Of a DNA stretch of 64,000 nt, positions 349 through 63,805 are shown in pieces. The notes beneath the pieces are model-generated. The model searched no databases and had not been told where the DNA came from. It worked only from the letters and a program-made list of their open reading frames with translations. A program made the translations under genes and the position numbers. Each line of letters starts with the position of its first letter. Position 1 is the first letter of the stretch. Origin of the DNA: Squalus acanthias (lineage: Eukaryota); NCBI GenBank assembly GCA_030390025.1, contig CM059434.1, forward strand, positions 85,126,001 through 85,190,000, given 5' to 3'.

Positions 349-550
349 ATACTCCTTATGAGGGACAATTTTTTTCTCAAAACCACACACCAACGCACTA
401 CTTATTAGGCCGTCTGTCTGTAAAGTGTACTTTTCTGGTGCAAAGGGCAGGCTTGGCTGGACATCTTGGCTTGTAAATTTCATCTGTGCCATGATATGGG
501 CGACAAAATTAATTTTGACAGGTAGACTTCTCAGGCTTTCATTAATTAAG
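349..550 (-). CDS. PIK3C2G: PIK3C2G exon, kinase C-terminus and PX start ([25 protein letters not shown]...PHKEY)
   Basis: Acceptor ctacag|C, donor TAT|gtaagt, 202 nt. Confidence 0.94.
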
Positions 551-3500
551 CTGTAGGTGAAAGAAATCAATTTCACTGGTCAGTGTCATAGAAAGTTAAA
601 CATGGTCAACACTCAATAAACATTTTCAGCTATACAGGAAGAACATTTCCCACAGCACTGGCATGGATTTTACTTCCGTTAGTTATGCATTGTGCCTTCA
701 GCTGAATTTTATGTATTCTGTTCAGTGATGTCAATGATGGATAAATATTAATCTGTTGCATTGACTCCTGTTCAGTGGAGAGACTAAGTTGCAAATGGCC
801 TTGCACAGATTACTACAAATCCTGCATTTGCTGCAATCGAGTTTAAGATCTCAATTTTCAGTGGTAGATTACGCCAAAGCTCAGAAGAACACCACTTACT
901 AGACACCCAGTAGTAAGTGGTTAACATATTACAATCAATTCAAAATATATATGGTAAATGGAAGGAAGGCTGCCTGTCCTGTTGTAGTTGACTGGGTCCT
1001 TGATGAATCTGCATTAAACACATCAGGACTGAATCTGTGGGTAGGGCATTTCAGCTACAGAAGAGTTGCAAATGGCTCTTCACCCATGATTGATCACCCC
1101 TGCAATATAGATCACGTTAAAATGTATTGATCGTGATTTTTACAGCAATGGAAATGTAATATTTAGCCCTTAGTTATCACTGCATTTCCTCGGTTTGCTC
1201 TTATACAGAAGGCTCCACTTAGTAACAGGCTGCTGCATATTCCAGTTAGCGTACTTGAGTCCCAATGATTCAGTTCTGCTTAGACAGTTCTCTGTAAACA
1301 AAACTTGACTGTAAAGCATGAATTTGCATAATCCACGTCTTTGCAACATTTATCTTTTGCATATTTCTCAGCATTCCTTCTTCATATGCCTAACTGATTT
1401 GAGGGGATTCCTGTCATGTGATCCTAGAAAACCTGGGCACACGGTCCCAGTTATTTACCATTTTCTTTGCTCCATTTATCTGCCATTTTACCGCGTTAAT
1501 TATAAAGCTTACTGGTTATGCGGTTCTGTAATTAGCTTGGCGGCCTATGGTACAAACTCATTTTATTAACAGTATCAGAGTTGAATTTAGACACATAACG
1601 AGCTGGGATTAGCAGGAAAGTAAAATGGGAAAACTAAAAGCTCAGCTTTCAACCTTGTGAAGTAAGAGGTGGCTTGTGCATCAGAGTCCTTTGGCCGCAA
1701 GTTATTGTAAACATACTTCAGGTCCTGGACTTCAGCCAGCTCAGGAAGTCCGGCTGACAGCATCTGAAGCAGACAAGAATGGAAGGTCTGTTATTATTAA
1801 ATTAGAGTCAGTGTCACAAACACTAATTACAGACAACGCCACTTCGGTGCACACAGTGGCTCATGGGATGCTGGAATTATGCCATTTTGCTCTTCTGCTG
1901 CAGAAAGGTGTCCAGGGCCTTCATTTGTTTGGCCTGATCTCGATCCATGAATCTTTATTATTCTTAGCGCCTGGTGGGGCCTGAACATTGGGCCAGAACT
2001 TGCTGGAGCGGGACATCTCGTGGCGTGCGCCATTAGTTAGACTTTTCCTGCACCCTTCAGCTCGAATATAATTTGCGCGAGGGCAATGGGGCATCTTGGA
2101 CCTCAGTGAATGAGGGGACTAACAGGATATCTCCTTAACCAATGAGATTTAAGGATTGAGAAAGAAACAGAGGAACAACAGGGAAGGGGGTGAGTTAGAG
2201 TTAAATCAGGTGCAGAAAGAGAAATAAAGCGAGGGAAAGAAAGATTGGAGTAAGAGAGAGAACATTTCCAATAATAATTTACTACCTGAAGGAACGAGAC
2301 TCCACTGTTTAAAGTATTCACTTTCTGGGCCAGAGAGATTGATTGGCAGTCATTAACAATTATCACGTTGTTAATTACTAGACTTAACTTTCTGCAGCGA
2401 GTTTAATGGATAATTAATGTGCAAATCCAGCAAGTTCTTAAGGGGAGGCGAAGCGCGAGATGCCTTTTGTGGAAAGCAAATAGCGGAGCAGTGTAAATCG
2501 AGCAGCAAGTTCTGGAGATTTGCAAGTCATGGCACATCTCTTAATCCCATGAATTTGCTGTTCGATTTGCACATTAATAACACCATGTGTCGTTCACACG
2601 CCATTATTTTTTTCAAGCAAGTTCTGGTCCAGTAACACCACTTAAAATGAATACTTCTCTTCTCTGCCTCACCTTCATTCTGGAAACGTAACCGTATTCA
2701 CTTATTTGGAGAAGGAATTCAGGGTGACCTTGGGGTTGAGTTAGCTACAAGATTAATACGTCTGTTAATGGGAGATTAGTACAATCCTCTGTGGCAGACT
2801 TGGTAGTCCCATGCCTGTGCCAGGTGGGACACAAATACTCCCAAGTCTGGTTCACTGTTAGGACCTGGAAGGGTAGACCTGTCCTCAGGGCCTGGGATTC
2901 TTCCCACTCGGCTTCTGATAATCCGGCAGGCCAATGTTGTATTGGGCAGGATCGTCCTAACTGGACAAACAGTGGGAAGCTTACCAATGCTGTTTTAGCC
3001 CATGAAATTTCAGTAGTATGTGCACTCTTGGGAGTCCTTAAGGCTTGGCTGTTGGTCTTGGCACCTATGTTTAGGTAAGCAAGCTGCGACCCTATGGGAA
3101 CAGAGTGCACAGACCATATCGGGCAAATGGAAAGTCTACTTATGTAAAAGTCTCTGTAAGTTGCTTTGGAGACGTTTGAGAATGGTAATGGGTTCCATGT
3201 GTGTCAGACACCTGGCTGACCAAAATATAATGTCATGGTCATGTTACTGACACTCTTGCTGGCTGACTCTCCCCGGTGTACGAGAACACTGATGAGCTGC
3301 TGCACATAGTAGCTGGAAAGTCTGCCTTCCTGTAGCACAAAAGTGAGAAGTTACACAATGCCAGGTTATAGTCCAACAGCTTTATTTGAAATCACAAGCT
3401 TTCGGAGCGCTGCTCCTTCGTCAGGTGAAGTGAAGAAATACAAATGGCCCATTTGTATTTCTTCACTTCACCTGACGAAGGAGCAGCGCTCCGAAAGCTT

Positions 3501-6500
3501 GTGATTTCAAATAAAGCTGTTGGACTATAACCTGGCATTGTGTAACTTCTCACTTTTGTCCACCCCAGTCCAACACCGGCATCTCCGCATCATTCCTGTA
3601 GCACATGGGAGCAGGATGTTAGCCTATCACAGTGCTAGTACAAACCTAGATACAAGACTTTCTTTCTGTCTTCCACTATTGCTAACATTTGTAGTCTCTG
3701 CAAGCATAACTGGCGTGCTGAAGCAGAGCTTTTGCTTTGCTTTGATGGCCATGCTGAGGCTGGCAGGGGTGGAAAATAGGACGGAGAAATCAGAAAAATA
3801 CCTGAATATCTGTTTGATAGTCACAGTATTGGTGAAGAAAAATGTATCCAGCTGGGATCCATTCATTCTTGATTTTTGGTCTTTGAGTAACGCTGACACC
3901 ACCGTTCAGTCCGTAAGGGTGACCCCGAGCTTCCCGTCGCCTGTCACTTTAATTCTCCGCTTCACTCCCACTCTGATCTCTCTGTCCTCGGCCTCTTATA
4001 TTGTTCCAATGAAGCTCAACGTAAGCTCGAGGAACAGCACCTCATCTTTCGATTAGGCACTTTACAGCTTTCTGGACTCAACATCGAGTTCAACAATTTC
4101 AGACTATAACCCCTGCCCCCATTTTTCAGGTTGTATGATTCTGCCATCCCCATCTGCAACATTTTATCTTTCCTGCCTCCTACCTTAGCACAGAATGTTC
4201 CTTCAGTTCCTTCCTTCCCCCCTCTCCCTGCCTCTGCACTTGCTTAAAATCTGTTACATCTCCAGCTTTTTCCAGTTCTGACGAAGGGTCATCGACCTGA
4301 AATGTTAACTCTGTTTCTCTCTCCACGGATGCTGCCTGGCCTGCTGAGTGTTTCCAGCATTTTCGGTTGTTATTCCAGCTCTCAGCTATTGTTTGTAAGA
4401 GGCTATATATAGAGTTTGGGCTTCATTTAAACATTGCAGGTGGCAAACGGGTGCCCACTGCTGCTCGTTGCTTGTGGGAGGGTGGGAAACGAGCTGGCTC
4501 GCCAGCTGACAGGTTGGATGTTGCGGAGGGGATGAGGCGATCCCAGGGGTGGGGAAAGGGGAGGGGATGGTCTTGAATGGGCCAGCAGTGGGCCAGTGTT
4601 TTTAAGTTGGCCCTGGAGGAGAACAAAAATAAAAAAACATTTCCTGGGCACTTTTTTAAGCAGCCCCGTAAAGGACCATTGGTTAGGACACCCGAGGCCT
4701 GGTACAGCACACTCCACCCATTTGTACCTGAAATCAGGGTCCTACTACTGGTGTAGGACCCCGATTTCCATAGTTAAGCAGCCTTACGCCCGTTTGCCCC
4801 TTACAAGCCCATTTGAAAATTGCATCGGGTGGGCCTTGGGTATCAATGGGGCAACAGGTTACACCTAATTATCAGCTGCCAGCCCCTCGTTTTTCAGCCG
4901 AGAAGTGGGTGGCAGTGAGTTGAAAATCTCCCCATGTTTATTTTGATTGTTCAGTGGAAAGTTGGGGAGTCCAGTGCTCTGGTCTGGAGCTCCATCTATC
5001 CCCGTCCTTCCCAGCTTCCTCCTCCCCTCTCCCCAGTTATACAGACTAGCAGACCTGCATTGCGGCCGCCAGGTGGTTGAACCTGCACCCTCGTGCCAGG
5101 TCCAATAACATGTTTGCGTCCCAAACATTGCCCAGTGTTTTTAACAAACCGACCTAGGCTACTAAACAATTGAGGCCTGAAATTCCCAGGGCCCGCACCA
5201 TCGGAGTAGAACAAGTCTGCACTTGTCCATAAGGACAGCCACCACCTCCCAAATTGTGGGGCGGGGTCATTTGAATGGCCAGGTAAGGCACATCGCACCT
5301 GCAAGAGCAATTCGGAGGTGACCACCTTGAACCACTGTTCAGAATGCCGGAGTAGCGCCATCTCTCTGTCGGTGGACAGCAGGCCTGGTAAGGCCCAAAG
5401 AACATTTCTTCTTAGGCCTGGAAGTTTCCCTCCGCTGCGGTAACTTTGCCGGAAGTAAACGGGGCTTCCGCTGCACTTCCAGTGAATTTACGGCGGTGGA
5501 ACGGGAGCAGCTCCGAGGAAATTCCCAGCTTTAGTCTTTTGCTCCTTAGGCAAGATATCGATCCCGGCTTCTCCCCAGTAAAGGCTTCTAAGGCCATTAG
5601 CATGACTCCTGTCAGCTCACAGGTGCCATGAATTCCCCTGATGTCTTAGGTAGAATGGGCAGAATCTCCAAGGGTGGCCCGGGAACTCCCCAGACATGCC
5701 CCCTCGCATGTGGGGGAGCACAGGTGGAAGAACCTAATACCACAATTTAAAGGGACCTTTAAACATGGAGGAATTCTGCCCCAAATTCCTGCCCTCCCCA
5801 CACCCAGGCAGAAATCTTCTTCTCCATGCTCCCTGAACCCAGGAATTTTGAGGACCTTGATATTTCAAACTCAACAACTCTCTTACCAGCTCCAGCAGAT
5901 TCATCAAGAGCTGAGTGTGTTGTCGGATGATGTTGTATGCCAGACAGCTCAGGTCCACAAACCTCTGGAAACGAGCCCCATCTTTTCCACCTTCTGTGAT
6001 GAAATGCTCCATTTCAGAAGTAAATATAAAAGGAGCGCGATCCCTGGTTGAAACCATGGACAAACACTCATTAATTAAAAAAGGTGCAGGCATTACCTTA
6101 ATGAATAAAAATTATACATTTTGATATAATAAAAGAGCTTGCGCCTTTCACAACCTCAGGATGTCCCGAAACGCTTTACAGGCAATGAAGCACTTTTTGA
6201 AGTGTAGTCAGTGTTGTAATGTAGGAAACACAGCAGCAATATCCTACAAACAGCAACGTGATAAATGACCAGATAATCTGTTTTAATGATGTTGGTTGAG
6301 GGATAAATATCAGCGAAGACACCAGGAGAACTCCCCTACTCTTCTTCGAATCGTGCCCATGGAACTTTTATGTCTGAGAGGCCAGATGGTGCCTCGATAC
6401 TGCACTGGACTACCAGACAATATTTTGTGCTCAAGTCGCTAGAGTGGGACTTAAACCCATGACCTTCTGACTCAGAGGCGAGAATGCTACCAGTGAGCCA

Positions 6501-9500
6501 CGGTTAATACCTGGCAGTTCGAGGTATTCTAAAGAATGTGTTAATCGCACTAACCTTTTCATGCTCCCAATCATCTGAGCATGCCCCAAAAACTTTCCAA
6601 AGTCTATGTGGAACATGTGGCCTGTGGTTTTCAGCATAATGTTGTCATTGTGACGATCGCAGATACCCAGAATAAAAGTAGCAACACACCAGCCCGCACA
6701 GGAGTTGATAAAGTTTTCCACAGCCTAGTCAACAAAAAAAAAAAACAATAAATATATGAAGCGACATGAACATTAAACCGGGTAAATGTAGCTGGACAGT
6801 TCTTGGTACAAAACCCCCATCACGGTATATAGAACTTTCCCGTGCGAGACTCGTTCTAGCAGCACGTCTGGGCTGCAACCCGAAGGTCAACCTGCTGGGA
6901 CTCGCTAAAACCGGCTAAAAAAAAAGCAACTGGCCTTTCCATCCATTAGCTTGAGCCACTGCAAGTGTGAGACTCGTGTGACAGGAACCAGTGGTGCCAG
7001 CATTGGGACTCACATAGTATCAATAGTCTCCGTTTTATTTTAGCACGATTACTGTCATCACCGATAGTAACATCTGTTACAATATGCACAAACTCGAGGA
7101 CTTTAAACATTCCCTCTCCAGTCCTTTTAAATGATTATTTGAAAGAGCAAACTAACCTGACAACCTATGGGAATAGCCAATTATTTCCGACTAACCTGCT
7201 GTCAGTCTTGGTTCAGTGGGTAGCACTCTCACCTCTAAGTCACAAGGTTGTGGGTTCAAGTCCCGCTCCGTGAGACTGGAGCACATAATCCAGGCTGACA
7301 CTTCAATGCAGTACTGAGGGAGCGCTGCACTGTCAGAAGTGCCGTCTTTCAGATGAAATGTTAAACTGAGGCTCCCTCTGCCCTCTCAGGTGGTGTAGAA
7401 GATCCCATGGTACTATTTTCAAAGAAGAGCAGGGGAGTTGTCCGCGTCAATATTTATCTCTCAACCAACATCACAAACAGATTATCTGGTCATTCTCTCA
7501 TTGCTGTTTGTGGGACCTTGCTGTGCGCAAATTGGCTGCCACATTTCCTACATTACAACAGTGACTACACTTCAAAAGTACTTCATTGGATTTAAAACGT
7601 TTTGGGACGTGCGGAGGTTGTGAAAGGTGCTATTGAAATGCCAGTTCTTTCTTTACTGGAATTTTTTATTTTTGGGACACTGCTGTGGTTCACTTTTCTT
7701 GCCAATGCTGTTCTTCACTCTGTCCTTTCAGGCTCTGGGTAGGGGTGTGTGGGAGGCAAGGGGAAGTGCCAGACACTGTCATTCCGCAGCTGGCAGAGTG
7801 ATTGCCTTTTGTTAACTTAGCTTTTTAAAAAAAAAAAGTCAACTCATCACAATCATTTGAGTGTGTGTGGTGCTCGGTCACCCGCTCTTCAAATCAGTAC
7901 AAGCAACTGAAAGAACTGGGCTCTCCCCGTTCACGCGCATGTGTAAATGTGGTGGCACTATTGAACTCGCACAACCAAAATTCACTCCTTTGGGTAACTA
8001 ATCACTGCCTTTATTGGAACACCTATCAAATGTCAGCCACCAATAGTGACCAAGATCCATGTGAGAATTAAAGATTACAACTGAATAGGACCATTCATTT
8101 GAGCATAATACTTTCGCCAGTGTTGCTCATTGTAACTCGCTAGCTCGGATTTTCAATCAACCTCATTATAAAACATTTTATGAAATCCTTTGTTGACTCC
8201 TCAGATAGATGAAAAATTGTAATGTTTTACAATATACTGGACAGGTATAGTTCAACAGTTCTAATTGACAATAGATATTGGGCCAGTCAGAAATAGGTTG
8301 AACATTCTCCAGTAGAAAAATGTACTGTTTTATTATTATTTTTTTTAGGAAAATTCAGCAACTTAAGGCTGATATCAAAGAACAATTTGTTGGGAATGGC
8401 AAATACATCAGAAAACATGGAACAAGAAAAGACCATTTGGCCCATCAACGTTCTACCCCACCTATTTCATGTTCTGAGGGAAACTTCTGCATAAATACCC
8501 TCTGCTCCCCAAAGATTATCAAGCAAAATTTCTAGAATATTCTTCCATCCGAACATCTCTACTATTTGAACGTAACCTGTTGCCCTTTACTGACAACATT
8601 CTGTCTCAAGACCCAGTCTCTGTCTCTACTTATCAACGCAATTTGTATTTATATAGCTAGTGCCTTTAACGTAGTAAAAAATGTCCCAAGGCGCTTTACA
8701 GGAGCGCTATTAGACAAAAATTTTCACCGAACCACATAAAGAGATATTAGGATAGGTGATCAAAAGCTTGGCAAAAAAGGGGTAAGTTTTAAGGAGCGAC
8801 TTAAAGGATGAAAGAGAGGTAGCGAGGCGGAGAGGTTTAGGGAGGGAATTCCAGAGTGTAGGGCCTAGGCAGCTGAAGGGACGGCTGCTAATGGCGGAGC
8901 GATGAAAATCGGGGTTGCTTATAATCCTGTTCAAAGAAAGTGCATTTAAATGGCATTTTTCATGACCTCATGAAGTCCCAAAACATATCATGACCAATGA
9001 CTTTCTAAGTGTAGTCACTGCTGTTATGTAGGCAAATGGAGCAGCCAACATTGCGCACAGCAAGGTCCCACAAAAAGCAATGAGGTAACTGTTAATTAAT
9101 ATGTTTTGGTGATGTTGGTTGAGGGATAAATATTGGCCAGGATACCTGCTTTTCTTTGAATTGTGTCATAGGATCTTTTACGTCCACTTGAATAAGCAGA
9201 CGTCTGTTTAATGTCTCATCTCAAAGTCAGTTGATCAACCAAATATTTATCCAGCTACTTTCTGAAGGAGTTAAGTGACTGCTTTTGCAGAGAGTCTGTT
9301 TCACATATACAACCTTAAATATACAGGAAGCCACATGAGAAGAGATTGTAAATTAGGACTCTACTTCGTGTTGTAGCCCTAAACCTCAAACGCAGGCCCC
9401 TGCGGGGGGTGCCGGAATGGTGAGTTTACTCAATGGTACTCTGTGACTGGAAAAAGTTTGTTCTATCTCTAATCTTACTTGAGGTTAGTTAATTTTAAAC

Positions 9501-12500
9501 CTGCACTTAGTTCTTCCCTTCAGTCTACGTCAAATAACTTGTTCACATCTCCATCATCAGATTCTCAGCATCTTAAAGGCCTAAATCATAATTGCCATCA
9601 ATCTGCTTTGCTGAAATGAAAATAAGATGGACTTCATGAAACTCTTCACAATTTGAAGACATCCTTGTAACTCTTCAAACACTTTAGAACACATCAATGT
9701 CCTTTGAAGGTAGAAATGACAGCTTCAATCCAAGGTCTGCTCTGATCTAGTGTAAGTTCCCTTCACTGTTCAATATGCTACAAATAGTAAAGGGTGAGAG
9801 GAATCAGAGAGAGCAGTGAAAGCAGCATTAAACAACCTGAGCAGACTGAGATTAGCTCCCAGATCTCTGGTTATATAATGGGAAGATACTTAACAGAAGG
9901 GGAGCGTAGCCCAATGTTTCGCTCATGAAAAAAACTTTTAATTAAAGCTCACATTTCTGTGCAACTCTTTGGTGGGGTTGTGTTCCTGGAACCATTTTGA
10001 AAGAATGTTTTCCTTGAGTGGCCCGATAATACCATGTTTCATATGGATCTTGGCGAGTGTCGTAGCACCAGGTACCATCTCCACCAGTCCTGCAAGAAGT
10101 CCAGTAACTTGAATGTAGCAGCGCAAAAACGCCATGCACATGTTGAATTGCTTTAACTTGCATTAAGTCCACTACTTGACATAACCACACAACAGTATTC
10201 AATATATGTGGTGAATTTTCATCATGACTTACTTTACAGTAAGTTGCTTATTGAAAGATAGTATAATTTTATATAATTGCTGTTAACCGTATACACGTGC
10301 TCTCATCTGCTTCAAGCTGTTGACACTTGCAGAGTAATTGCTGGTTAAGTTTTGGGGTGCAAACATATGGGCCGGATTTTGCGACCCCCACGGGTGCATA
10401 CGAGGTGTGTACGCGCCCGTTGGGGCCTCACAAGTGCCGGTTTCACGCCTGCCCGGGAGAAGGGCCTCCGCGGGCAGAGAGTTCCACTTTCTGCACAACC
10501 TCCGCCCGCTGAAAACCTTTAAAAATCTTACGCCTGGTAAAAGCCTGCGTAAGGCCTGCTTTTACCAGCATAAGAGTTTAAAAAAATAAAAAAATAATTT
10601 TTTCCCCCCCACTCATTTATAATTTAAAAATACTTTTAAAAAAAGTTTATTTTTAGCTCCGTAAAAAACTTCAATTTTTTTAAAAATTAAACTTTTGTTT
10701 AAAATATTTAATGTAATTTTAACTAATTTTAAATATGGTGATGTTTTAAAAAAAATGTATTTAATGTTTAACTGTTTTAAGTGATCCCCATTCATACTTT
10801 TGACAGATCTGTGCATAGAAACCTGTCAAAAGTGTGATGGGGGATTCCCTTCTTTGATTGGTTCCCCATGGCCCAAGTGATCCCAGGGATGCTTGCGAAC
10901 CGCATGCGCCCTGGGATACCTGGGCCTCTGAGCATTTCGTAGAGCAGAGGCCCAGGATCGGAAGTCTCGGGACCTACGGAGCCAGCAGGTAAGTGTGTAG
11001 ATTTTTTCCGATCGGAGGCATCCGCCCGTAGGAAGCCTCTGATCGGAAATTCAGGGTTGGCTTCTTCCCAGTTCTGATGAAAGGTCATCGACCTGAAACG
11101 TCAACTCTCTTTCTCTCTCCACGGATGCTGCCTGGCCTGCTGAGTTTTTCCAGCGTTTTCTGTTGTTATTTCTTCAAATGTGGTGTTGGAGATGCTGACA
11201 TGACATTCTAGTTATAAACACTTGAATAACCACCAAATACTGTGAGCAACTCTATTAGAGTGAGTACTAGGTCTTCAAAAAACAATGCTGGGGCAGAAAT
11301 ATAACCTACTCATTACTGTAACTTAGGGATTAAACTCTTTTTAATATGATTTAGTAATCAAAACAATATGCTGTAGCACAGACCTCTCCCCCTTCCTGTT
11401 GATGTGCACCTGTAGATGATCATGCTCATATTCAGCCCCTCCTGGCACCAGATCCTGTCCATTACTTTAACGATCTGCAGAACGAGCATGTCCTGTCGAA
11501 GGTCGTCTCCTGACTGGAAGGAGGGAACGTTCCAAACCAATTAGTTCAAAAGTCCAGTAAGAATGTAGTAGATCCCCCCCATTGCATTGCTCTTGGGGGA
11601 GTTGAAGCATGCATAGTTTAATAACAATAGCATTTGTCAATAACAAAGGAGTGTGACAGGAAAGTGTTTTAGGAAGTAGGTGAGACACTTACAGGAAGTG
11701 CACGCTAGATGCAAGACCTTTAATGTTACTGGTAGATCTCCTGTCGCATTACAGCGAGTTGAAGGAGATGTTGTTCTGTAACAATAGAGGTATTATCAAA
11801 AAGTAAGACTGGGTAAGTGTTACAGGATTCAAGTGTAACAGTCACAGGAAGTGTATGCTTTACACAACATTTTTAATGTATTACCGCAGACAGGAAGTGT
11901 GTGCAAACACAAGATTTTAATATTTTCCTTTCTAAATTCCTACATCCACATTTATAACTGAAACTGCCTATGAAAACTTATCACGCTGTAATGACACCCT
12001 GCCTTCAGTCAAGGTGCTGCAATGCCACCATTTGTGGGAGGGTGTAATTACAACATGACAAGTTTACACAGAGTTTTTCCATTATAAATGTGGACAAAGG
12101 AATTTATAATGGAAATATAAAATCTAGGACAGAATATTTAACTTTAAAATGGGCATTGTATTAAGTCTGTGCACCTGGTTCAAATATCCTTTGGCCTCTA
12201 GCCATGCTTTACTTGAAGATTTAAGTCATGACTCCCGTTTGCAACATCATGGAAAATTAACTTTCTTTTATATAAAAATATTCAGAGTTGTGTTTTCTTT
12301 CAGTGTACAGAATACTAAATTGGATTTTTAAAGTGAAATAAGTTAGCCTACATTTTTATAGTGGGGGGTGGGGGGAGGATCTTTGGGTTTCTCTTTGGTC
12401 AGGGAACCCTGCACACGGGCCTTGGTTGTTGGGATAATGATCTTTGTCTTCAACATTGCAAGTACCAGAATTTCAGGCTCCAAGTGAAACATGAAAAACA

Positions 12501-21500: not shown

Positions 21501-21717
21501 ATGGAGTAGTGGTAAAAATGGCTACTTGGGCAAGTTACTGGAGAGCAGTTGGTGCCCATATCCAAGCACGGATCACTCCTTCTGGAGAGGCTGGGAAACA
21601 ATTGGGGGGTGAGGGGTAAAGTTTGATTATAAAATTGGGAAACAGTTAAAATTAATAAAAAGGAAGAACCTTACCATTGGGAAACAGTTAAAATTAATAA
21701 AAAGGAAGAACCTTACC

Positions 21718-21762
<45 letters not shown>

Positions 21763-30700: not shown

Positions 30701-33700
30701 CAGCCTGACGAAGCTCTTGATCCGAAAAACTTATCAAGTGGAAAACAAAAGATACAAAATGAAAGAGAGTGAGTGAACTTACTTTAACCCCTTGGTACAC
30801 AAGTCACAGCTGAACGATATTACACTAAAGCCAAACCCAATTTTACCAGTAACTGAATTTTGAAAAAAAAATTAACAAACATGTTTACTCTCGAAACAAA
30901 GTTGATCCATCCAATTCAGGCACTTAGCTTGGAAGCCTCTTTAGAGCCAGATTCTCATTTTTTTTTAAAAAAGGGATTAGCTGCCTCTTTTCCTAAATTG
31001 TAAAACGACTCGCTACTAAAATGACGGGTGCAAAGGATTTTGCTATGGCGATTTAGTGCAACACGATTTCATTAGTTGGAATGACTGAGACCCAGTCAAT
31101 CATCATACACATCCAATGATGATCCTTTAACACCTCTGAAGTAACTAACGCGCCACTAAGGCGATGACAAAAAAAGCTCATTAATCTAGCTGTGCCATTT
31201 GCAAAACCACTGAGTATTGGCTTAGTGGCAAACTTGTAAAGCCAGGCTTTTGTTGAGCGCGTGATGGAGAAATTGGATGATCTGTTTTGCCCAGGGAGGG
31301 TGACCCTTAAACCTGTTTAACTGATTTAGACAGTGAGAAGTTAGAAGTAAGCTGCGTGGAAATTTAACATAGATCACGTGAGCTGCAGAAGCGTATTAAA
31401 GAAATTTCACTGCTTGAGAACGAAAACCAAGATTAAGCAAGAATATCACTGTAAAATAGCAGCATAGGACACATATGGAGATGGCATTCAGTGGCAGTTG
31501 TTAAAGATATAAACATGCAAGAAAAATGCTGCTTTCGCACAAAAGATCAAGAAGGATGTAACAAGGAACCAGAAATAGCAGGCTAATGCAAATAACATTG
31601 CACATGTCATGATAGCAATGGGAAAATACTGCAGGATGGAATTCCCATGAGGAATATCATCGTCCTCATTCACACTCTTCATACATTTGTGGAATTAATG
31701 GGGTGGGAGGCTCTCAATAGTATCGGGAGGTTGCAGGTCTGCACAGACATAGGAACAGGAGTAGGCCATTCAGCCCCTTGAGCCTGCTCCGCCATTCAAT
31801 TAGATCATGGCCCAACTGTACCTCAACTAAATTTACCCGCCTAAGCTCCACATCCCTTCATATGCTTACTTAAGAAAAATCTATTGATCGCAGTCTTGCA
31901 AGCTCCCATTTTCCCAGCATCCACAGCCTTTTGGGGGAGAGAATTCCAGATTTCTACTACCCTTTGTATGAAGAAGTTCTTCCTGATTTCCCTCCTAAAT
32001 GGCCAAGCTTTAATTTTAAAATGATGTCCCCTCATTCTTGATTCCCTTACCAGAGGAAATAGTTTCTCTGTATCTACCCTATTGAATCCTTTGAACATTT
32101 TAAACACCTCAATTAGATCACCCCTCAACCTTCTATACTCAAGGGAATACAGACCAACTATTATGTATCACCTTCATCACATATTCACTTATTTGTACCA
32201 TATGTTGCATCAATGTGTACACTGATTGTGCACAAGTGCTTGATAGATCATATAATGAAAATATAATACCCAATGGATATGTGTGAATCATAGAATGGTT
32301 ACAGCACAGTAGGAGGCCATTCGGCCTGTCGAGCCCGTGCCGGCTCTCTGCAAGAGCACTTCAGCTAGTCCCACACTCCCACCCTTTCTCCGTAGCCCTG
32401 CAATTTCTTTTCTTTCAGGTACTTATCTAATTCCTTTTTGAAAGCCACAATTGAATCTGCCTCCACCACCCTTTCAGGTAGTGCATTCCAGATCATAACC
32501 ACTCACTGCGTAATTTTTTTTTTGCTCATGTCGCCTTTGGACCTTCTGCCAATCACCTTAAATCTGTGTCCTCTGGTTCTCGACCCTTCCGCCAATGAGA
32601 ACAGTTTCTCTCAATCTACTCTGTCTTATAGACTTGTATGTCCCATCTGCTCTCCTAACAGAACAAGTATCAAACAGCTTTCTGCATACAGCCAGAAAGG
32701 AACAGTCACTGGAGCACCAATGGCACTTGCAGTAAGCACCCAATGAAGATACATTGTGACAAATGATTTGGATGAGAAAGTCCAGGGTAATTGGGGGTGA
32801 AGGGGTAGCAAAAGATGACTGGGGGTGAAGGGTCAGCATTTGGAGGGGAGATGCCCGTCATCCCTGAGGAATACAAATCTTAGGGGGACTATTTTCAAAC
32901 CGAGGAAATACAACATGAAAGAGCCACGCTGAGCAGTTCACTTGCCTCCATATACATGGCGGTACAAGGTGGTATGGTTAGGTTGGACAAAGAGTCATTC
33001 ACACTAGCATCTGCCATTTTGCAAGGAGCAAAACCAGTGGTAATTGTGGGTGTGATCTTAGTAATGTAGGCCGTGGCATCTCACAAATGCTTCCACTGTC
33101 GCTATGCATGTTTTGGGATCCAGAATCCAAGGAGTAATCCAGGCAGGCTTCAACTCATTTGTAGAATGTGTTACAAATAGCCATAAGGGTGGTATTCAAA
33201 GATCTTCTCGATGCCCAGCATTCTGAGAGAGCACAGACGAATGGGGATCATGAGATGTCATCTTCTAGCAGTGGCATGCGTGGAGAAGCAGCTGGTTACC
33301 ACTTGTGTCAGCAACCTCTGAAAGCAATGAGCCCACAGTGATGCCAGCAAAGGAGACTCTTGCCACTGATGCAGGTACATCAGGATTAGTTGTTCACAAA
33401 GGAAGCAGACTTTCCACATCCCACGGCTACTCCCTCAGCTAGGGACGCACTGAGAACTAGGGCACATACACAGGGCGCACTCAGAACTTTACAAGTCAGA
33501 ATGAGTGAATACAAGAGAAAGCCATCGAACGTGCCCATCACATGCACTTAACACATTTTATTATTAGTATAGCTTGCAGTCTGCCACCCTTTTATTGTGC
33601 AGAACAGAAAGTGTAAGTTGTCCCAAGTAAAGCCAACTGAAATGATGCCGTCTTTAGCAAAAGCTAAACAAGTAAAAGATCTGCAGTTCTGTGGTTATAA

Positions 33701-36700
33701 ATATATCCAATAGAAATTAATAGTGGCCAATTGCATACGACCCCCTCAGGCACCTGCCTCCTGGGCTACAGTGGCTGGTGAGTGTACCATTGGCTTATTG
33801 ATAACCATTGAATTGTCAATAGGGCACTGAGTGACTACATACCACCAAAGACGTTGTTATATGTTGGCATTTGATAGCTGCCTCTGTTGTTGCTGGTTCC
33901 CTTTGAAGTATAAGTGAGTGTGGGGTATAAGAGCGCTTCAGATACCTCCTTAAATGAAGGAGTGAGTGAGAAAGTATTTGATTCTCGTGGGGGGTTAAAA
34001 GGGCACTGTTCCATTCAAGTGGTGCTGTTCACGGTTACTGGTAGCGCAGTGTGGATGGCTGATTGTCCCCGAGGTCTTTGTGGCCTAGATGGCACACCCC
34101 AATCACAGCCTCCTGACTGTGCCTGAACCTCACCATGCACCAACTCTCTTTCATGCCAAGAGTTTATGATTTGATTGCTGTACATTGGTCGTCTGGCACA
34201 TTGTTTGCTCTCTGCATCCTCGAGCCACCATCCCTTCCTTCACTCAGATACCCCTCAATGGCTGCTGTTCCCATGTTGTGGGGATGAAAACTCCTCTGTG
34301 TTATTCCCTTCTGTCATTGCTGTGGTGGTACTTCTGAATTTGGCCCTTCATTCAGCTGACTAAAGCCAGGTTTGAGCTGGAATTCAGTACTCGCATTCTG
34401 TTTGTTTCTTTCTGTGTAATTCTGCACAAGTTTCTCTTGATCAGCAATTAAGAAAGCCGCAGCCGAGAGCAATAAAAATTATTTTCCCTGCTAATTTTCA
34501 AGAACAGGCTTGTGGCACAAATTAATAAATAGCTTTTCTACACTTCTGTCAAAATCATTGCATTGAGCAAAATATGGCCCTTACATTGCAAAAGCAATTC
34601 ATTTAGAGATTTATTTTGCAAGACTTTGGCAATAATATAAACACCTCGAGGCCATACTGTATTCATTGAAATTTTTTTGCCTCATTTTATCATTCTCCAA
34701 AACAATTTTTTCCCCTCATTTCAAAGACAAGTCCTCGCATCTCTCATCAAGAGCCAATGCCAGTTCCTCCCTCCTCCACATTACATCCTAGCAGCTGGCA
34801 AGAGCCAGACCCATTGAAGCAGGTGGTTTTGGTGGCAATGAGCCCTGTACGAAATGAATTAGGCCATGTCTGCCAAGTGCTGAACCCAACCTGTTTGACA
34901 TTATTTAGTGCGATTACAAATCCATTTGCTAAGCCAGTTTTTTTTCCCCCAAATTGGAGACAACAGGAGTGCAGAGTCGGGAACAGGCCTTGCCGGCAGA
35001 ACATTGTCTCAAATTGATTAGCCTGTGGTGACTGGCTTCTTATACTTCCATTGACGGGAATGTTGAAAGATGGTAATAGTTTATCTTGTAATCATAGGGC
35101 TGTGAGGCTGCCTATCAAAACCTCCTCCCACTACACACACTCTGGTGTCTGTAACTGCTGGTAACAGTATATTATCCTGTCAAAAACAGTTTAGAAATTC
35201 ATGAAAATAAAAACTCCACAGCAGCGTGGTGCAAGCTTTTTGTCTTCATGGCTTGCCAAAGTGTGTATTGTGTTAAATTAAATTAAAAGGGTTAAATTAT
35301 AAGGACAGGTTGCATAGACGAGGCTTGTATTCCCTTGAGTATAGAAAATGAAAGGGTGAACTAATTGAGGTGTTTAAGATGATTAAAGGGCTTGATAGGG
35401 TAGATAGAGAGAAACTATTTCCTCTGGTGAGGGATTCCAAAACAAGGGGACAGAACCTTAAAATTAGAGCTGGGGTGATGTCAGGAAGCACTTCTTCACA
35501 CAAAAGGTAATGGAAATCTGAAAAAGCTGTTGAGGCTGGGGGTCAATTGAAAGTTTCAAAACTGAGACGGATATATTTTTGTTAGGCAAGGGTTTTAAGG
35601 GATATGGAACCAAGGCCGGTAGATGGACTTAAAATATAGATCAGCCATGATCGAATTGAATGGTGGAACAGGCTCAAGGGGCTGAATGGCCTCCTCCTGT
35701 TCCTACATTCCTATAGAGTCTCAGGGCCCACATGTAAAGTTTAAATCAAAGTACCCGTCAATTTACAAGCATCTCCAGTTGCTGATATGTACAGATCGTG
35801 GTGCTCTGATTTAGGATTTATCCCCCATTGAGGCAATAGCCCTTTCCAAGCCTAGAAGCTTGCAAAACTCAAACAGGACAAATCAACAAGTACGAAACAA
35901 ATAAGCATAAATAGGTCGGAGTTATGGGGTTTCACGGGCCGGTTCCAGAAGGCTCGTGACCCGAGGGCTGCAGATTGGACAGCCCTGATCTATAGACTCT
36001 GCTTAATAACTTACCACACAGCTATGTTTAACTCAGACTCAAAACACTTTGTTCAATAAAAACAAACTGGCAAAGGCAATTAATAATAAAAAAATCCATT
36101 TATAGAAATTATTAGTACACAGAAATGTATAAAACACTAAATCCATATTTAGTCCTTTCAATCCCAGAGAGGTGAATGTGACAAAAATCACTAAAACACC
36201 TTCTTCCGTGAGTCACTGACGATTTCTGAAGTTCGGCACCCAAATGATCTAACCCGGGTGTCTGATTCTTCTGAAATGTTTGCGTTAGGGGAATGAAACT
36301 GTCGCACTTAGTGTCAGGTCACTCAGAGTACACCAGATGCATAGTATTGCTTCATCTACTTCTGAACCCTAACTTCATCATAACACTGCACCAATATGAC
36401 ACTTCCATTTACTACGCCAGCTATCCTTGTGCTCCCTCTGACTGAGTTGTGTGATTAAGGGCAGTTTTATGCTGTTGAATCATGCCCACTAGCCTTGGCA
36501 TTACACAAACACATTTTTCATGACAGAGAAAATAGACTACTATCCCGTCAGTTTGTATCTAGATCCAAGAGGTGGAAAGACGGTAATATAACTCACTGTA
36601 TCTCCTACTCCCAGTACCGAGTGAGTATTAGGTAAAATAAATGCAGTACTACAAGACTATGTTATCCCAAGCATGAAACTGATTAAAGATAGTCTATGAC

Positions 36701-39700
36701 AGCCATTTTTAAAAATAAAGACAAATAGTTCCATAACATTTTTAGATAAGGAGGAGGAAAATCACTGGGAGATAAGTCAGACTCCTACCTTGAAAGCAAT
36801 AATCCCAGTGACTCTAAAGGGTTTGCTGAAAAGCTCCACCTCCTGAGCACTGCGTAGATTTCAGGCAGAGAACCCAAGTCCCAGCTGGGCGCACTGCCCA
36901 GCAAGAGGGGAAGGAAGCAGTTTGAGCTGTTACAGAATGAACGTTTTGTCCAGAGCAAGTTTTTCTCTTCTTCTTCAATCCTGCAAAAACCAATAGAACA
37001 GCAGTGAAAATGTTGTGACATCAATGCTCAGATCCCTACAAGTGTCAGTGAATTATACCGGCACTCCAGAATTGGAACATTATTCCACTGAGTGAAAACA
37101 TCAAGCCAGACATTGACACAAGTCAAAACTTTCTCTGACAACGTAACTCAGCCCTAATCTGAGGCCAATCTTTCTGTACAAGCAGTCACCTATCTTTTAT
37201 ATTCTCATACTCCTAATCCCCATCACCTCCGACATGAGAATTGACAAATCAATGTCAATTAATATCATTTGGGTGACCGCTTTGCAGAACACCTCCGTTC
37301 AGTCCGTAAGGGGGACCCCGAGCTGCCGGTCGCCTGTCACTTTAATTCACCGCTCCACTCCCACTCAGACCTCACCGTCCTCGGCCTCTTGCATTGTTCC
37401 ACGGAAGCTCAGCGTAAGCTCGAGGAACAGCACCTCATCTTTCGATTAGGCACTTTACAGACTTCTGGACTCAACATAGAGTTCAACAATTTCAGATCAT
37501 AACCTCGGCCCCTATCATACATATATTTTTTATCCACACTTTTTGTTTGTGCCTTCTGTTCTTCTCTCCCACATGGCAGCTGTCTTTCATTCTGCCAGCG
37601 CAATTTACACTTCATCTAGAGCCATCCTTTGTTTCTTAACCTGTCCCATTACCATCTCCTTTTGCCTTGAATATCTCTTAACCTCTTCCGCCTTCTATCC
37701 TATCACAGACCTTACCTTTTGTTCTTTTATCCCCTCCCCCATTTCCCAGCCCCTACACTTGTTTAAAAATCTGTTCCATTTCCTGCTTTTTTCCAGTTCT
37801 GACGAAAGGTCATCGACCTGAAACGTTAACTCTGTTTCTCTCTTCACAGATGCTGCCTGACCTGCTGAGTATCTCCAGCATTTTCTGTTTTTATTTCAGA
37901 TTTCCAGCATCTGCAGTATTTTCTTTTTGTTTCAATTAATATCAAATTGATAGAGCACTTTTGTTTGAGGTATCCTCTGGAAATTTGATCAAATTGTTTG
38001 GCAGAGGACGTGAGCACTGCCTTTTAATAGCATGAGAAAGTGAGAGGAGTTGAATTTAAACCCAGATCGGAGAGATAAATAGTGTTCTAAAACACGGCGC
38101 TGGACAGGGCTATACAAAGAGGGGCGGTTTCATTAATCTTAGAACACAATATTGACTCAAAAACAGTACATAATACCTCAAATATTTAAATATATTAAAA
38201 TAAAATTCAAAGTACCTAATCACTCAGTGAATAAATGTACTGGGTCTTATAGGTCAGGATGGCCCCAAGTTTAATCTGTATTCTGCACTCTGATCTCAGC
38301 CAGGTTAGCAAAGATGGGACAATACCTGGCCTCAACACCATGGCTCCCTTGCTGGAGTTTCTAACCTGTATCCCAGGGTACTGAGGCTACTTCTACTGCC
38401 CCAATTCTCACTGCGACTGATCAGCCAATTCAAGACAAATCAGGATCAAATCTGGGATCCCTCTGGTCTGTATGCCTCAGTTCCACAACATGCAGTAAAT
38501 TGATCAACGGAGCTATTGGGGCCAGCTGCTTTCTGTTAGCTCTTTCCACGGGTATATCGATCTTTGTGTAACAGGTTCTGCCCGACTTCCCTTCTTACCC
38601 CTAACTTGATCATTTTTAAACTTGTTTATTCTGTATTTGAACCCTTCACCACAGTGAACAATTATCAGGATCAGCTTGGTCAAACCGTGGACATCAGAGA
38701 AATGAATTGGTGCGCAAGTCAACAAGCTCGTTATCAGATGCAGAAATCTAGGGCGCGATCTTGCCAGCCCTGGGGAGGAGGGTATGGAGGCAGGACTGCC
38801 AGGAAAATGGCAGAATCTGGGGGCGGGTGCCCATCCCGCCCCCAACCCGCCTCCATGCCATCTTCCCAGGAGGCGGGTAGCTGACCCACGCCAGGTCCCG
38901 TCTCCTGGAGGTGGGAAGGGGATTACAGCCACTTAACTGCCTGTTAAGAGGATTATCCCCATTTTTCCAGGAGAGGCGCAGGCTTCCTGACGTCTGGAAA
39001 CCCCGCCAGGGTCACCGAGGCGAGCAGTGGGTCTGCGGGGTGCAAAAGTGCGCTGTGAAGGTAAATGATGGGTGCAAGTGTGGAGAGAGGTAAGTATGTG
39101 AGGTGAGTGGAAAGTGTTAGAAAATGTTTACTTACCTTTGTTTCTTCCTGCAAGCTTCAACAGTTGGGGATGCGGAGAGTCTCGCATCTCACCAGCAGAG
39201 ATGACAGATGGCTGCTGCATTCTCCGATGCAACAACCATCTAATTTTTGCTGAAGAAAGGTTTGATGAGTCTTGAATACAAGGACTCATCAAACAACAGG
39301 GAATGTCAGTGTTTGACAGCTTCACAGAGCTGTCAAACGATGACAATTCATCTGCCAAAAATTTGACAGACAAAACGTCATTCGCTGACGCTCTCTGTAA
39401 CCGGCTTCCCCTTAATTGGCCTGCTAAGCTTGCTGGGCAGGCTTAACAAGGTCAATCAAGGGAAAATAGCATGGGTTGGCCATAAGTCGATGGAGGTGGG
39501 ACAACGACCCGAGAAGCAGCAGTCCCGCCTCCAACGCGCCCCCATTGGCAAAATCGCCCCCTTAGTGTCTGCATGATGGATCAGTGGCAACCAAATAGAA
39601 AACGTTACAGTCGCCAATCGACTGTTTGATTTATTTTAACTCTCATCCATGTGCAATTGTGTGGCTGGCATTGTGGACAAGGTTAATAGCCCAGCTGTAG

Positions 39701-42700
39701 CAGTCTCAGTTTTATGCATAAAGGTTGTGCGTCAAGGGTTGATCTGGCCACATGTATGATGCGACTATGTCAATCTTTGGAACTTCTAGGCCTCCATTGG
39801 CTGAAATAAACAAAATTGCCCTCAAAGCTGGTTTACTCTGGAATCTGAGGCAATTTTTTCCCATGTGTATTGCACTTCAAAAATGAAACAGTAGGGCTGA
39901 AGGGAAATAAATCATAAATTAAGTTATTTATTAGGAAGTCATTAAAGGCACTGCCTAGTCTAGCCCTCAACCATAATGACCAGGTTTGATTCTCGGTCAC
40001 GCAACGCAATTAAAAACTGATATGGAGTACTGTAACTTTCAAACTATTATAAAAACAGCAAATGCTGGAAATACTCAGCAGGTCGGCAGCATCTGTGGAG
40101 AGAGAAACAGAGTTAACGTTTCAGGTCGCTGATCTTTCGTCAGAACTGGAAAAAGATTTACAGAATTGACAGGTTATATCTATCAGGAAAAACTGAACGG
40201 GCTTCTCTAGAAAAGAGAAGGCTGAGGGTGACTTAGTAAAGGTCGTTAAAATTATCAAGGTATTGATAGGGTAGACAGAGAGAAGATGTTTCCACTTGTG
40301 TGGGAGTCCAAAACTAGGGGCCATAAATATAGATAGTCACTAATAAATCCAATAAGGAATTCAGGAGAAACTTCTTTGCCCAGAGAGTGGTTAGAATGTG
40401 GAACCCACTACCACATGGAGTAGTTGAGGCGCATAGCATTGATGCATTTAAGGGGAAGCTGGATAAACACATGAGGGAGAAAGGAATAGAAGGATAAAAG
40501 CCTGCGGTATCCAGGTAGGCCCCTCTTTTACAGCGGCGGACCTGGGCGAGAAGTGAGTGGAGCAGCGAGGCTAAAAAGCTATACAGGGTGATTGCTTTAA
40601 TAGTGCGGGTCGCAGTGGTTGCTGGGTAAGTTTTTTTTTTAAACCTGTATATAAGTTGGCGGTTTCTAAACCTGAGACACTACACTTGTAGTGTCCCCCA
40701 CTCTTCCACCTCCTCTAACCTAAAGGGGGTGAGTGTATATCAGGAGGCCCGGTGAGTATCTAAACTCACTTTCGCGGGCTTTTGTTTGCAGAGGCTGGTC
40801 GGGAGCGGAGAGAGCCGAGGCTCGGTGAGTATCTAAACTCACTTTCGCGGGCTTTTGTTTGCAGAGGCTGTGTCGGGAGCAGAGAGAGCCGAGGCCCGGT
40901 GAGTATCTAAACTCACTTTCGCGGGCTTTTGTTTACAGAGGTTTACCAATCTCAGACCGGCGGCGGCGTTCCAGAGCCACGTTACGATTCAAAACGTGAC
41001 GTGGGCAGGAGGGAGCGGCTGATTGGGTGAGTACGGCAGGTTAGTATTTATACTACTTTATAGTTTGATAGTTAAGGTTCATAGTTTATAAAGTTTCGAA
41101 GATCTTAATTTTGTGATTATAATTTCTAGTGCTAGTAACCAAGGGCCCTTGAGTAATTCATTTAATTGAGTGAAATTGGTGGTATTGATTTGATTTAGTT
41201 AAAGTTCAATTAATTAAAGGGTAAGTCATGGCAGGACAGCCCAGCCCCGTGTTGTGCTCCTCCTGCTCTATGTGGGAAATCAGGGACCCTTCCGGTGTCC
41301 CTGACGAACATGTGTGCGGGAAGTGTATCCAGCTGCAGCTACTGACAGCCCGCATTGCGGCGCTGGAGCTGCGGCTGGATGCATATTGGAGCATTCGCGA
41401 TGCTGAGAACCTCGTGGATCGCACGTTTAGTGAGTTGGTCACACCGCAGGTGAAGGGTGTACAGGCAGGAAGGGAATGGGTGACCACCAGGCAGAGTAGG
41501 AGGTGCAGGCAGGTAGTGCAGGGGTCCCCTGTGGCCATCCCCCTCTCAAACAGATATACCGCTTTGGATACTGTTGGGGGGAATGACTTAGGGGAAGGCA
41601 GCAGCAGCCAACTTCCTGGCACCATGGGCGGCTCTGCTGCACAGGCTGGGAGGAAAAAGAGTGGAAGAGCTATAGTGATAGGGGACTCAATTGTAAGGGG
41701 AATAGATAGGCGTTTCTGCGGCCGCAACCGAGACTCCAGGATGGTGTGTTGCCTCCCTGGTGCAAGGGTCAAGGACGTCTCGGAGCGGCTACAGAACATT
41801 TTGGAGGGGGAGGGCGAACAGCCAGCTGTCGTGGTGCACATAGGCACCAACGATATAGGTAAAAAAGGGGATGAGGTCCTAAAAGCAGAATATAGGGAGT
41901 TAGGAGGTAAATTAAAAAATAGGACCTCAAAGATAGTAATCTCAGGATTGCTACCAGTGCCACGTGCTAGTCAGAGTAGAAATAGGAGGATATTTCAAAT
42001 GAATACGTGGCTAGAGGAATGGTGCAAGGGGGAGGGATTCAAATTCCTGGGACATTGGAACCGGTTCTGGGGGAGGTGGGACCAGTACAAAGCGGACGGT
42101 CTGCACCTGGGCAGGGCCGGGACCGCTGTCCTAGGGGGAGTGTTTGCTAGTGCTGTTGGGGAGGATTTAAACTAATGTGGCAGGGGGTTGGGAACCTGAG
42201 CAGGGAGACAGAGGAAAGCATGTCAGGAAGGGACAGAAGGTATGGAGTAAAAGGTAAAGTGTTAAATAAGGAAAAAGCAGGAAGTAAGTGTCGCAAAACA
42301 CATTTGAAAGTTCTTTATCTGAATGCACGTAGCATTCATAACAAAATTGACGAGTTAATGGCACAAATAACTATGTATGGGTATGATCTTGTGGCCATTG
42401 CAGAAACATGGCTGCAGGGTGACAACGTCTGGGAATAAAATATGCCAGGGTATTTAACAATCAGGAAGGACAGGCAGGAAGGAAGGGGAGGGGGGGTGGC
42501 TATGTTAATAAAGGAAGGAATCACTGTAATACAGAGAAATGATATTGGGTCAAAAGATCAGGATAATGAAACAGTTTGGGTAGAGATAAGGAATGATAAG
42601 GGGAAAAAAACACTGGTGGGCGTAGTATATAGGCCTCCTAATAGTTGCAACTCTGTTGGAAGAAGTATTAATCAGGAAATAGTTGGGGCATGTAATAAGG

Positions 42701-56053: not shown

Positions 56054-56084
<31 letters not shown>

Positions 56085-63755: not shown

Positions 63756-63805
63756 CTGAAACAGAAACAGCATCTTGTTTAATCCAAACCAGAAAACAGT
63801 TCTCT

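Follow-up and report, generated by a model that had tools for sequence, protein, structure and literature searches.

What do six small ribozyme motifs do in the introns of a shark gene? The stretch analyzed here (64,000 nt in total, hereafter the window) carries six 37-nt hammerhead motifs of two families, A and B. Our analysis makes it highly probable that they are minimal hammerhead ribozymes (min-HHR) in the pLTRs of dead, 5'-truncated copies of Neptune-type Penelope-like elements (PLEs). In this answer the ribozyme likely serves the RNA of the element, likely at the very start of its transcript, and would cut only when dimerized and helped by the protein; the copies left in the introns are likely passengers without activity. 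That PLEs carry minimal hammerheads, their covariation and the idea that they work as dimers are already known (2014-2017).

The motifs and the elements that carry them

The preliminary description had listed six motifs, and all were found again at the same positions and strands. Family A is represented by 3468-3504 on the plus strand, antisense to the host gene and with a predicted cut after position 3500, and by a mirror arm at 3392-3428 on the minus strand, which is that of the host gene. Family B has four copies: 4274-4310 (plus), 11070-11106 (plus, with C at H17), 37795-37831 (plus) and 40111-40147 (minus, again the strand of the host gene). An Rfam search of the window with E<=5 gave no match to a hammerhead family. 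All that matched were hairpin look-alikes, among them MIR399 on the family A palindrome, which was discarded.

The two family A motifs are arms of one insertion and thus not independent. This insertion (3337..3593) is a head-to-head pLTR palindrome whose arms of 111 bp (3337-3447 and 3449-3559) are 100% complementary, followed on one side only by a 34-nt tail (3560-3593) and bounded by a target-site duplication of 13 bp (3327-3339 and 3593-3605, plus strand). Among the family B copies, the one at 4274 belongs to a 5'-truncated element (3896..4378, plus) with the end of a GIY-YIG frame (3896-4122), an internally deleted 3' untranslated part and a pLTR. The one at 37795 lies inside a second 5'-truncated element (37269..37938, plus) with GIY-YIG end, pLTR and tail, around which we found a 13-bp duplication (37255-37267 and 37932-37944). 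The other two are solo pLTRs, at 11060..11172 (plus), beginning about 9-14 nt before C3, and at 40049..40155 (minus), beginning about 12 nt before it. Besides, an older head-to-head family B pLTR stub with no complete core was located at 45772..46004. A target duplication was sought for the 4274, 11070 and 40111 copies and found in none of the three. In the case of non-inverted truncated copies elsewhere in the genome, duplications were present in 11 of 27 for family A and 11 of 43 for family B, against 5-8% in mismatched controls.

The claim that the motifs are PLE-borne minimal type I hammerheads is borne out, as the pLTRs in which they lie flank or follow RT and GIY-YIG frames. In family B they come after an RT (YIDD), a C-x4-C-x2-C linker and a GIY-YIG domain with two Cys, with Pfam matches (RVT_1, E 3e-6; a weak GIY-YIG, E 0.001-0.006) that are both below the cut-off of Pfam. 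One family A locus (L222) is a full tandem of pLTR, 877-codon frame (Met at the tail end; RVT_1, E 2e-9) and pLTR. A single frame with RT and C-terminal GIY-YIG (CCHH motif) was found in L222, L199 and L211 of family A and in L036 and L055 of family B; family A gave no GIY-YIG match in Pfam, and its motif was recognized by eye. The proteins of the two families are 31% identical, and both have the linker Zn-finger, a feature common to Neptune and Nematis. A CX2-5CxxC Zn-finger in the RT-EN linker has been described in Neptune and not in Penelope or Poseidon (PMC8557442, in the passages used). Hence both families would be Neptune-type PLEs, a placement that comes from motifs rather than from a tree. 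The features of EN+ PLEs are all present: pLTRs in tandem or inverted, a one-sided tail and a target-site duplication. These elements are very abundant: core matches numbered 161,785 genome-wide versus 10,584 with a reversed control, that is, about 150,000 cores net, with 20,896 exact cores of family A and 18,232 of family B.

Fold and variation of the ribozyme

The catalytic boxes (C3-A9, G12-A15.1, U16.1 and H17) are present in all six window copies. Stem III has no loop, so that it could not close inside one copy; the proposal that it forms only between two copies agrees with this. Its description as a palindrome stands for five of the six and fails at 4274, where C15.2 is U and self-complementarity is lost. 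All three stems differ between the families and still pair, as had been noticed (four of four pairs in stem I, three of five in stem II and the variable pair of stem III). The copies at 4274 and 40111 had been credited with single substitutions; actually, each has two differences from 37795. At 4274 one of the two, 10.1 G, is frequent in family B (25 of 46 copies), and at 40111 one creates an A.C mismatch in stem II.

We analyzed the variation in 77 family A copies, picked by a motif located 3' of the ribozyme, and in 46 copies of family B. In family A nine of the 11 core bases were invariant, G8 was kept in 76 copies and U4 in 72, while N7, H17 and loop 2 were free to vary; in family B the boxes had singleton changes. 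The unpaired extra base between 9 and 10.1 was A in 76/77 and 46/46 copies, respectively. Pair 3 of stem I in family A was C-G in 51 copies, U-A in 24 and U-G in 2, and pair 10.5 of stem II was C-G in 70 and U-A in 4. The 15.2-16.2 palindrome was GC in 77/77 family A copies; in family B it was CG in 33/46, with CpG-type changes in 11 and others in 2. The G10.1-C11.1 pair, found in 77/77 copies of family A, was replaced in family B by A-U (18), G-U (25) or unpaired bases (3). Over 20 chosen family A haplotypes, 97.8% of the cells pair and two pairs have changed on both sides; a shuffle test on these haplotypes is inflated by their relatedness. The covariation that had been claimed therefore holds within family A (stems I and II) and between families; within family B it is reduced to the one-sided A-U/G-U change. 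Judging from these sequences, the fold of the family A ribozyme is under selection. The comparison of core and flank conservation is ill-posed for dead copies, and we used the comparison between subfamilies instead.

The predicted double-hammerhead fold of family A has -19.1 kcal/mol versus -21.6 for two monomers, and that of family B -9.7 versus -18.2 kcal/mol for competing folds. Most family B copies have U at H17. Activity is uncertain because family B lacks the G10.1-C11.1 pair and mostly has U at H17, and because in both families the double hammerhead is less stable than competing folds.

Copy ends, palindrome junctions and the proposed replication cycle

The dead copies may indicate where the RNA of the element begins. 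We took the first 100 listed matches on one contig (C1), using all 100 for family A and 95 for family B (the last 4 listed were left out). Between about 12-14 nt before C3 and 11 nt after it we found the 5' ends of 30/100 family A and 40/95 family B listed copies, rate ratios of 4.8 and 6.9. The cut site (±1) had 0/100 and 4/95 ends, and three of these four were, on inspection, internal microdeletions. Copies that begin at the cut site were thus not in excess in these samples (0/100 in A; 1/95 in B after removing the microdeletions). The modal end was -7 in family A (7/100 copies; 20/95 arms) and -4 in family B (4/95). Each of these bases is an initiator-like A that follows a TATA-like box at a distance of 30-32 nt. 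In family A it precedes C3 by 7 nt; in family B it precedes C3 by 4 nt and is the base with which stem I begins. This geometry was noticed after the modal bases had been found, which makes its p-values post hoc, and the single-base mode of family B is weak (p 0.07, also post hoc). Among copies with no inverted arm nearby the pile-up was not significant in family A (5/60, ratio 1.8, p 0.19) and held in family B (21/68, ratio 5.3). In one group of family A subfamilies, comprising about 13 of the 49 long copies, the TATA-like box lies at -42 to -45 and the initiator match at -7 is mostly missing. Some of the upstream mapped ends are artefacts that arise where the reference lacked a subfamily, and the two arms of an insertion do not count as independent. 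Contigs from two runs of two other studies have loose ends before 37794, which is C3-5 (13 and 8 contigs); these runs are only guessed to be RNA, and neither starts nor ends nor strand can be told from contigs. In a comparison by eye of 12 flanks upstream of family B copies ending at -5 to -2, we saw no spliced first exon in common. As a separate observation, this end region of family B has a branch-point/pyrimidine/AG-like signal.

The palindromes are mostly joined at the same edge. Genome-wide, 3,868 family A palindromes have 0-24 nt between cores versus 803 with 25-49 nt, and in counts made with the same flanks 7,071 were joined at the front edge versus 347 near the cut site. We compared the arms of the first 50 palindromes listed: the tail was on exactly one arm in 45 and on both in none, and no allele bias was seen between arms with and without tail. 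Loop 2 differed between the arms in 12 of 37 young palindromes, with 14.8 expected for independent draws. Many junctions show microhomology.

From the ends of the copies we infer the following cycle. Transcription of the element would start at the initiator-like A (-7 in A, -4 in B). The element protein would begin to copy 110-145 nt downstream, from either of two sites separated by about 34 nt, and would run off the 5' end of the RNA, leaving short pLTR stubs. Priming of both DNA strands would lead to a head-to-head join of two such copies, of which 3337-3593 would be an example. Uncut RNA would serve as template. Published work on such ribozymes describes cleavage as low and dimer-dependent (PMC4209133, passages used) and as protein-assisted, the uncut RNA being the dominant substrate in vitro and cleavage requiring the protein (PMC11167929, passages used). 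On the evidence of the copies, the ribozyme likely opens the RNA of the element, which is likely copied uncut.

The 5' ends could instead pile up because the RT stalls or folds back on the ribozyme structure, or because ends are joined via short complementary stretches, and would then not mark the RNA start. We consider this possible and rather unlikely. The family A pile-up, concentrated at inverted junctions, and the microhomology speak for it, and self-priming has been proposed for such palindromes (PMC3846280, passages used). However, stalling is expected 3' of the stems, where the ends are rare, as the junction counts given above indicate; the -7 end was seen repeatedly, joined to partners that differ; and the family B pile-up appears in non-inverted copies, several of them with target duplications. 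Fold-back of DNA would not give the differences between arms in loop 2.

A bolder proposal starts from the same front edge. The ribozyme would be the first ~35 nt of the element mRNA, dimer-dependent cutting would remove the cap and act as a concentration sensor that silences an abundant element, and the palindromic stem III would also pair two uncut RNAs, both of them copied into the same insertion. Such a scheme would explain the ends at the front edge with almost none at the cut site, and arms that often differ in loop 2 yet share a subfamily marker. We regard it as unlikely.

The roughly 150,000 genomic copies have some value as a record of how PLEs replicate. They suggest that the RNA starts at the ribozyme, that it serves as template without being cut, and that in inverted insertions two independent copies of it are made. 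A search of openly accessible papers found neither a paper on shark PLE hammerheads nor a published link of the ribozyme to the transcript start site.

The host gene, lesser alternatives and known systems

The minus-strand PIK3C2G-like host gene of the preliminary description is confirmed by 15 exon matches in the window (328..63757) and by its best named relatives, shark class II PI3K gamma-like proteins. The six motifs all fall in its introns, those at about 1763-5884, 10147-11379 and 36979-48277. It had been suggested that pairing with a matching PLE transcript could let the two minus-strand copies cut the intron of the host pre-mRNA. Both are indeed on the strand of the gene and within introns, and the substrate half of 40111 is intact (stem III palindrome, H17 and the 3' strand of stem I), so that a partner core could in principle cut it. 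However, the mirror arm of 3392-3428 is made earlier in transcription, and in the predicted fold the motif pairs over its whole length with that arm, locked in a 111-bp hairpin (predicted probability of the 10.1-11.1 pair in pre-mRNA context about 4e-19). In 40111 stem II is broken, with a predicted probability of 0.03 alone and 0.004 in context and a double-hammerhead fold at +3.7 kcal/mol, and a partner would hold by only about 8 base pairs, the one role that could in principle remain to this copy being that of substrate. Besides, even tandem constructs of min-HHR have shown low activity (PMC4209133, passages used), and the genome as a whole tolerates about one core per 25 kb. It is thus very improbable that the host intron is cut. 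According to these models the copies are likely inert passengers for the host gene, and their significance for it is small.

Also very improbable is a reading of the palindrome as a non-autonomous element in its own right (MITE-like or a retrozyme), amplified as a whole. The form is very common, as the short palindromes counted above attest, and has target duplications. Nevertheless, other genomic copies have the same head-to-head layout with different centres, which rules out a palindromic element of fixed centre; the identical pLTR terminates protein-coding elements; and the window has no tandem array of ribozyme-bearing units, its copies being solo or inverted. That the motifs are chance matches to a pattern with only about 11 fixed core bases has almost no probability: one of the seven window matches (14997-15023) is probably random, but the other six are the named motifs, 0.30 matches were expected, at least seven occurred in 0/100 shuffles, the genome-wide excess over the control is 15-fold, and the motifs have compensatory changes and a fixed position in the element ends.

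The comparisons that follow refer to the passages used of each source. The shark motifs resemble the min-HHR found in pLTRs of metazoan PLEs (Cervera & de la Peña, 2014; PMC4209133) in the type I core, the extra base between 9 and 10.1, the 4-bp stem I, the loopless palindromic 15.2-16.2, the covariation-rich families, and the prevalence of solo copies with close opposite-strand pairs. They differ in the host, since a shark was not found in the searched passages and supplement file 2 of that work, and in number, about 150,000 cores here versus about 4,000 in coelacanth and 9,000 in Xenopus, counts made with different descriptors. Stem II has 5 bp here, and in family B A-U or G-U replaces G10.1-C11.1, a common trait in that study that lies outside its descriptor. 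Non-LTR retrozymes (bioRxiv 10.64898/2026.07.22.740005), in a study that sampled one chondrichthyan, also have type I hammerheads derived from pLTRs; they are tandem arrays with a ribozyme per unit, whereas the window copies are solo or inverted stubs.

The insertions are like EN+ PLE units, with an inverted 5' pLTR giving head-to-head arms, a one-sided tail of 30-40 bp and a target duplication (Arkhipova, 2013, PMC3846280; Craig, 2021, PMC8557442), and a TATA box and an initiator-like TCACT were noted in the pLTR before (PMC3846280). Here, unlike in those works, the junctions were counted genome-wide and tied to the front edge of the ribozyme, and the frequent difference between arms argues against self-priming as read there. 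The closest parallel to the proposed cycle is Poseidon_Ac in vitro (Frangieh, 2024, PMC11167929), where two copying start sites define the tail and both strands are extended. Its substrate is the uncut RNA and its ribozyme needs the protein, as is only proposed for the shark elements. Poseidon_Ac is a member of the Poseidon clade with a frame that begins within the ribozyme, whereas the shark elements have a Neptune-type linker and the family A Met lies at the tail end.

Hammerhead motifs and the elements that carry them

The six 37-nt hammerhead motifs of the preliminary description are all present in the window, two in the Penelope-like retrotransposon family A (3468, plus strand; 3392, minus) and four in family B (4274, 11070 and 37795, plus; 40111, minus). 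The generic core pattern matched seven times, whereas 100 shuffles gave an expectation of 0.30. Six of the matches are these motifs and the seventh, at 14997-15023, is probably due to chance. When the window was searched with Rfam, no hammerhead family was hit at E<=5. None of the six copies has a loop on stem III, which therefore cannot close within a single copy; its restriction to dimers stands. Its palindrome is self-complementary in five of the six copies and lost at 4274. The copies at 4274 and 40111 had been credited with one substitution each; both have two differences from 37795, one of those at 40111 disrupting stem II.

We took copies from the first genomic matches listed on one contig to a motif downstream of the ribozyme, leaving the core free of pre-selection. 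Of 100 A copies, 77 held the whole motif; in these, C3, G5, A6, A9, G12-A15.1 and U16.1 were invariant, G8 was changed in one, and U4 was C in five, four of them with a common haplotype. N7 appeared as all four bases, H17 (the cut is predicted after it) as U or C, and loop 2 had from 2 to 9 nt. Pair 3 of stem I was C-G in 51 copies, U-A in 24 and U-G in 2, and pair 10.5 of stem II was C-G in 70 and U-A in 4; the outer stem I pair was mismatched in 13. Among 20 hand-chosen haplotypes, 97.8% of the cells (sequences, not independent events) were paired, with two pairs changed on both sides, against 17-50% in slid controls. Changes in the 46 B copies (47 had the motif, one poorly parsed copy being excluded) were mostly single decay events, the sole recurrent stem change being A-U/G-U at 10.1, so that family B lacks the G10.1-C11.1 pair that PMC4209133 describes as highly conserved. 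Pair-preserving change is real within A; within B it comes down to this one-sided replacement. A multi-copy A subfamily (L140, L201, L217) carries U4>C in the core plus a compensatory U-A in stem II, so this core variant was amplified. The motif is the minimal hammerhead of Cervera and de la Peña 2014 (PMC4209133), where covariation, the palindrome in stem III, pairs on opposite strands and a low activity of dimers were already described; it is real and of a known kind, in new host families.

The family B end repeats (pLTRs) stand after frames in which a C-x4-C-x2-C linker connects RT to a GIY-YIG nuclease (Pfam domain matches below cut-off). Two copies in the window retain the ends of such frames, at 3896-4122 and 37269-37515. 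Family A pLTRs have the same architecture upstream; L222, a full A tandem, has an 877-codon frame with a Met at the tail end (RVT_1, E 2e-9). The A and B proteins share 31% identity over 351 residues. Across the genome the generic core was matched 161,785 times and the reversed control 10,584 times. At this density of about one core in 25 kb, 2.6 would be expected in 64 kb, and the six of the window are only slightly above average (P 0.05). In a young A subfamily (L067:5383-5480, minus; L078-L107) a decayed B-like pLTR lies directly 3' of the stop codon. Its hammerhead is broken, with stem II retained and the GAAA box lost, and older A subfamilies have shorter remnants. From these sequences, one of the two elements seems to have captured an end of the other.

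The window also holds a long LINE copy (41225-45200) whose first frame encodes a GDSL esterase (Lipase_GDSL_2, E 5e-14) and whose RT frame is broken; many fragments related to it are spread over the window. About seven near-identical units of a 25-bp tandem repeat (24258-24489) lie within a LINE fragment. A Harbinger-like DDE_Tnp_4 transposase frame (53088-55203, minus, E 6e-36) is faced by a 288-codon plus-strand frame. There are also a 73-bp tandem duplication (40744-40941) and an imperfect palindrome (11935-12104) with a MIR6224 score far under cut-off.

Where copies begin

Long copies served as references along which every copy was extended to locate its 5' end. Ends accumulated at the front edge of the ribozyme, between C3-12 and C3+11 in 30 of 100 A copies (4.8 times the rate elsewhere) and between C3-14 and C3+11 in 40 of 95 B copies (6.9 times). 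In the window, the 11070 and 40111 copies start about 9-14 and about 12 nt before C3. None of the 100 A copies ended within 1 nt of the cut site, and of four apparent B ends near it (95 copies) three were internal microdeletions. Independently of alignment, head-to-head A pairs genome-wide numbered 3,868 with 0-24 nt between cores and 803 with 25-49 nt. Among A palindromes with identical flanks, the join lay close to the cut site in 347 and at the front edge in 7,071, that is 1:20, against about 1:5.5 expected if both arms ended uniformly.

The commonest end was -7 from C3 in A (7/100 copies, 20/95 palindrome arms) and -4 in B (4/95 copies). Compared with the initiator and TATA consensus, both coincide with the A in an initiator-like sequence. 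In most of the long copies a TATA-like box precedes it by 30-32 nt, a geometry spotted only after the modal ends were known; in one group of A subfamily copies the box is spaced differently. A similar pair is described for a rotifer pLTR (PMC3846280). Element transcription likely starts at this A by the ribozyme front. When copies with a nearby inverted arm were left aside, the pile-up was not significant in A (5/60, ratio 1.8, p 0.19) and was kept in B (21/68, ratio 5.3). Contigs from two other studies gave a weak hint, with loose ends at C3-5 in B.

Origin of the inverted copies

The two A motifs of the window are not independent: they are arms of one insertion, which consists of a perfect 111-bp inverted repeat plus a 34-nt tail and has left a 13-bp target duplication; its arms are identical and its cores 45 nt apart. 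In the first 50 short palindromes among the matches listed (L296-L345), the tail was on exactly one arm in 45, on neither in 5 and on both in none. In 37 young palindromes the arms were discordant for a marker 3' of the ribozyme in only 2 (19.6 expected at random), differed at H17 in 3 (6.4 expected, an intermediate value) and in loop 2 in 12 (14.8 expected). Fold-back of DNA would leave the two arms identical, so independent copying of the arms is likely, be it from two RNAs, from two pLTRs of the same subfamily or with an error-prone loop. Neither this two-template reading nor the start site was found in the literature searched. The window also has, at 45772-46004, a head-to-head stub of family B, which is older and lacks a complete core.

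The host transcript and known systems

A homology search led to a class II PI3K gamma-like protein from a shark. On the minus strand it gave 15 exon matches between 63757 and 328, the gene extending past the window. All six motifs are intronic, and, as had been noted, 3392-3428 and 40111-40147 are on the gene's strand. The suggestion that these two copies could cut the host intron is not supported by the fold predictions. As the host gene is transcribed, the antisense arm of the A palindrome comes first, and the predicted 111-bp pairing with the sense arm would lock the copy in a hairpin; the probability of its 10.1-11.1 pair is about 4e-19. At 40111 the broken stem II has a predicted probability of 0.03 alone and 0.004 in context, with +3.7 kcal/mol for the double hammerhead. 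By pairing with a partner RNA over about 8 base pairs this copy could in principle serve as its substrate, though this is unlikely. The double hammerhead is predicted to be less stable than competing folds even where copies are intact, in a model that ignores tertiary contacts. This weak stability fits the protein-assisted hammerhead cleavage reported for an anole element (PMC11167929).

In family B a pyrimidine run that closes with CAG precedes stem I (37775-37797, 4255-4276), in some subfamilies together with a branch-point-like word; no spliced exon in common was seen in 12 upstream flanks, compared by eye, of B copies ending at -5 to -2. The signal resembles the intron end at helix I of D. 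virilis Penelope, as described in PMC4209133. The linker finger is given in PMC8557442 as a mark of Neptune/Nematis, missing in Penelope/Poseidon; both shark families have it and by this motif would group with Neptune/Nematis.
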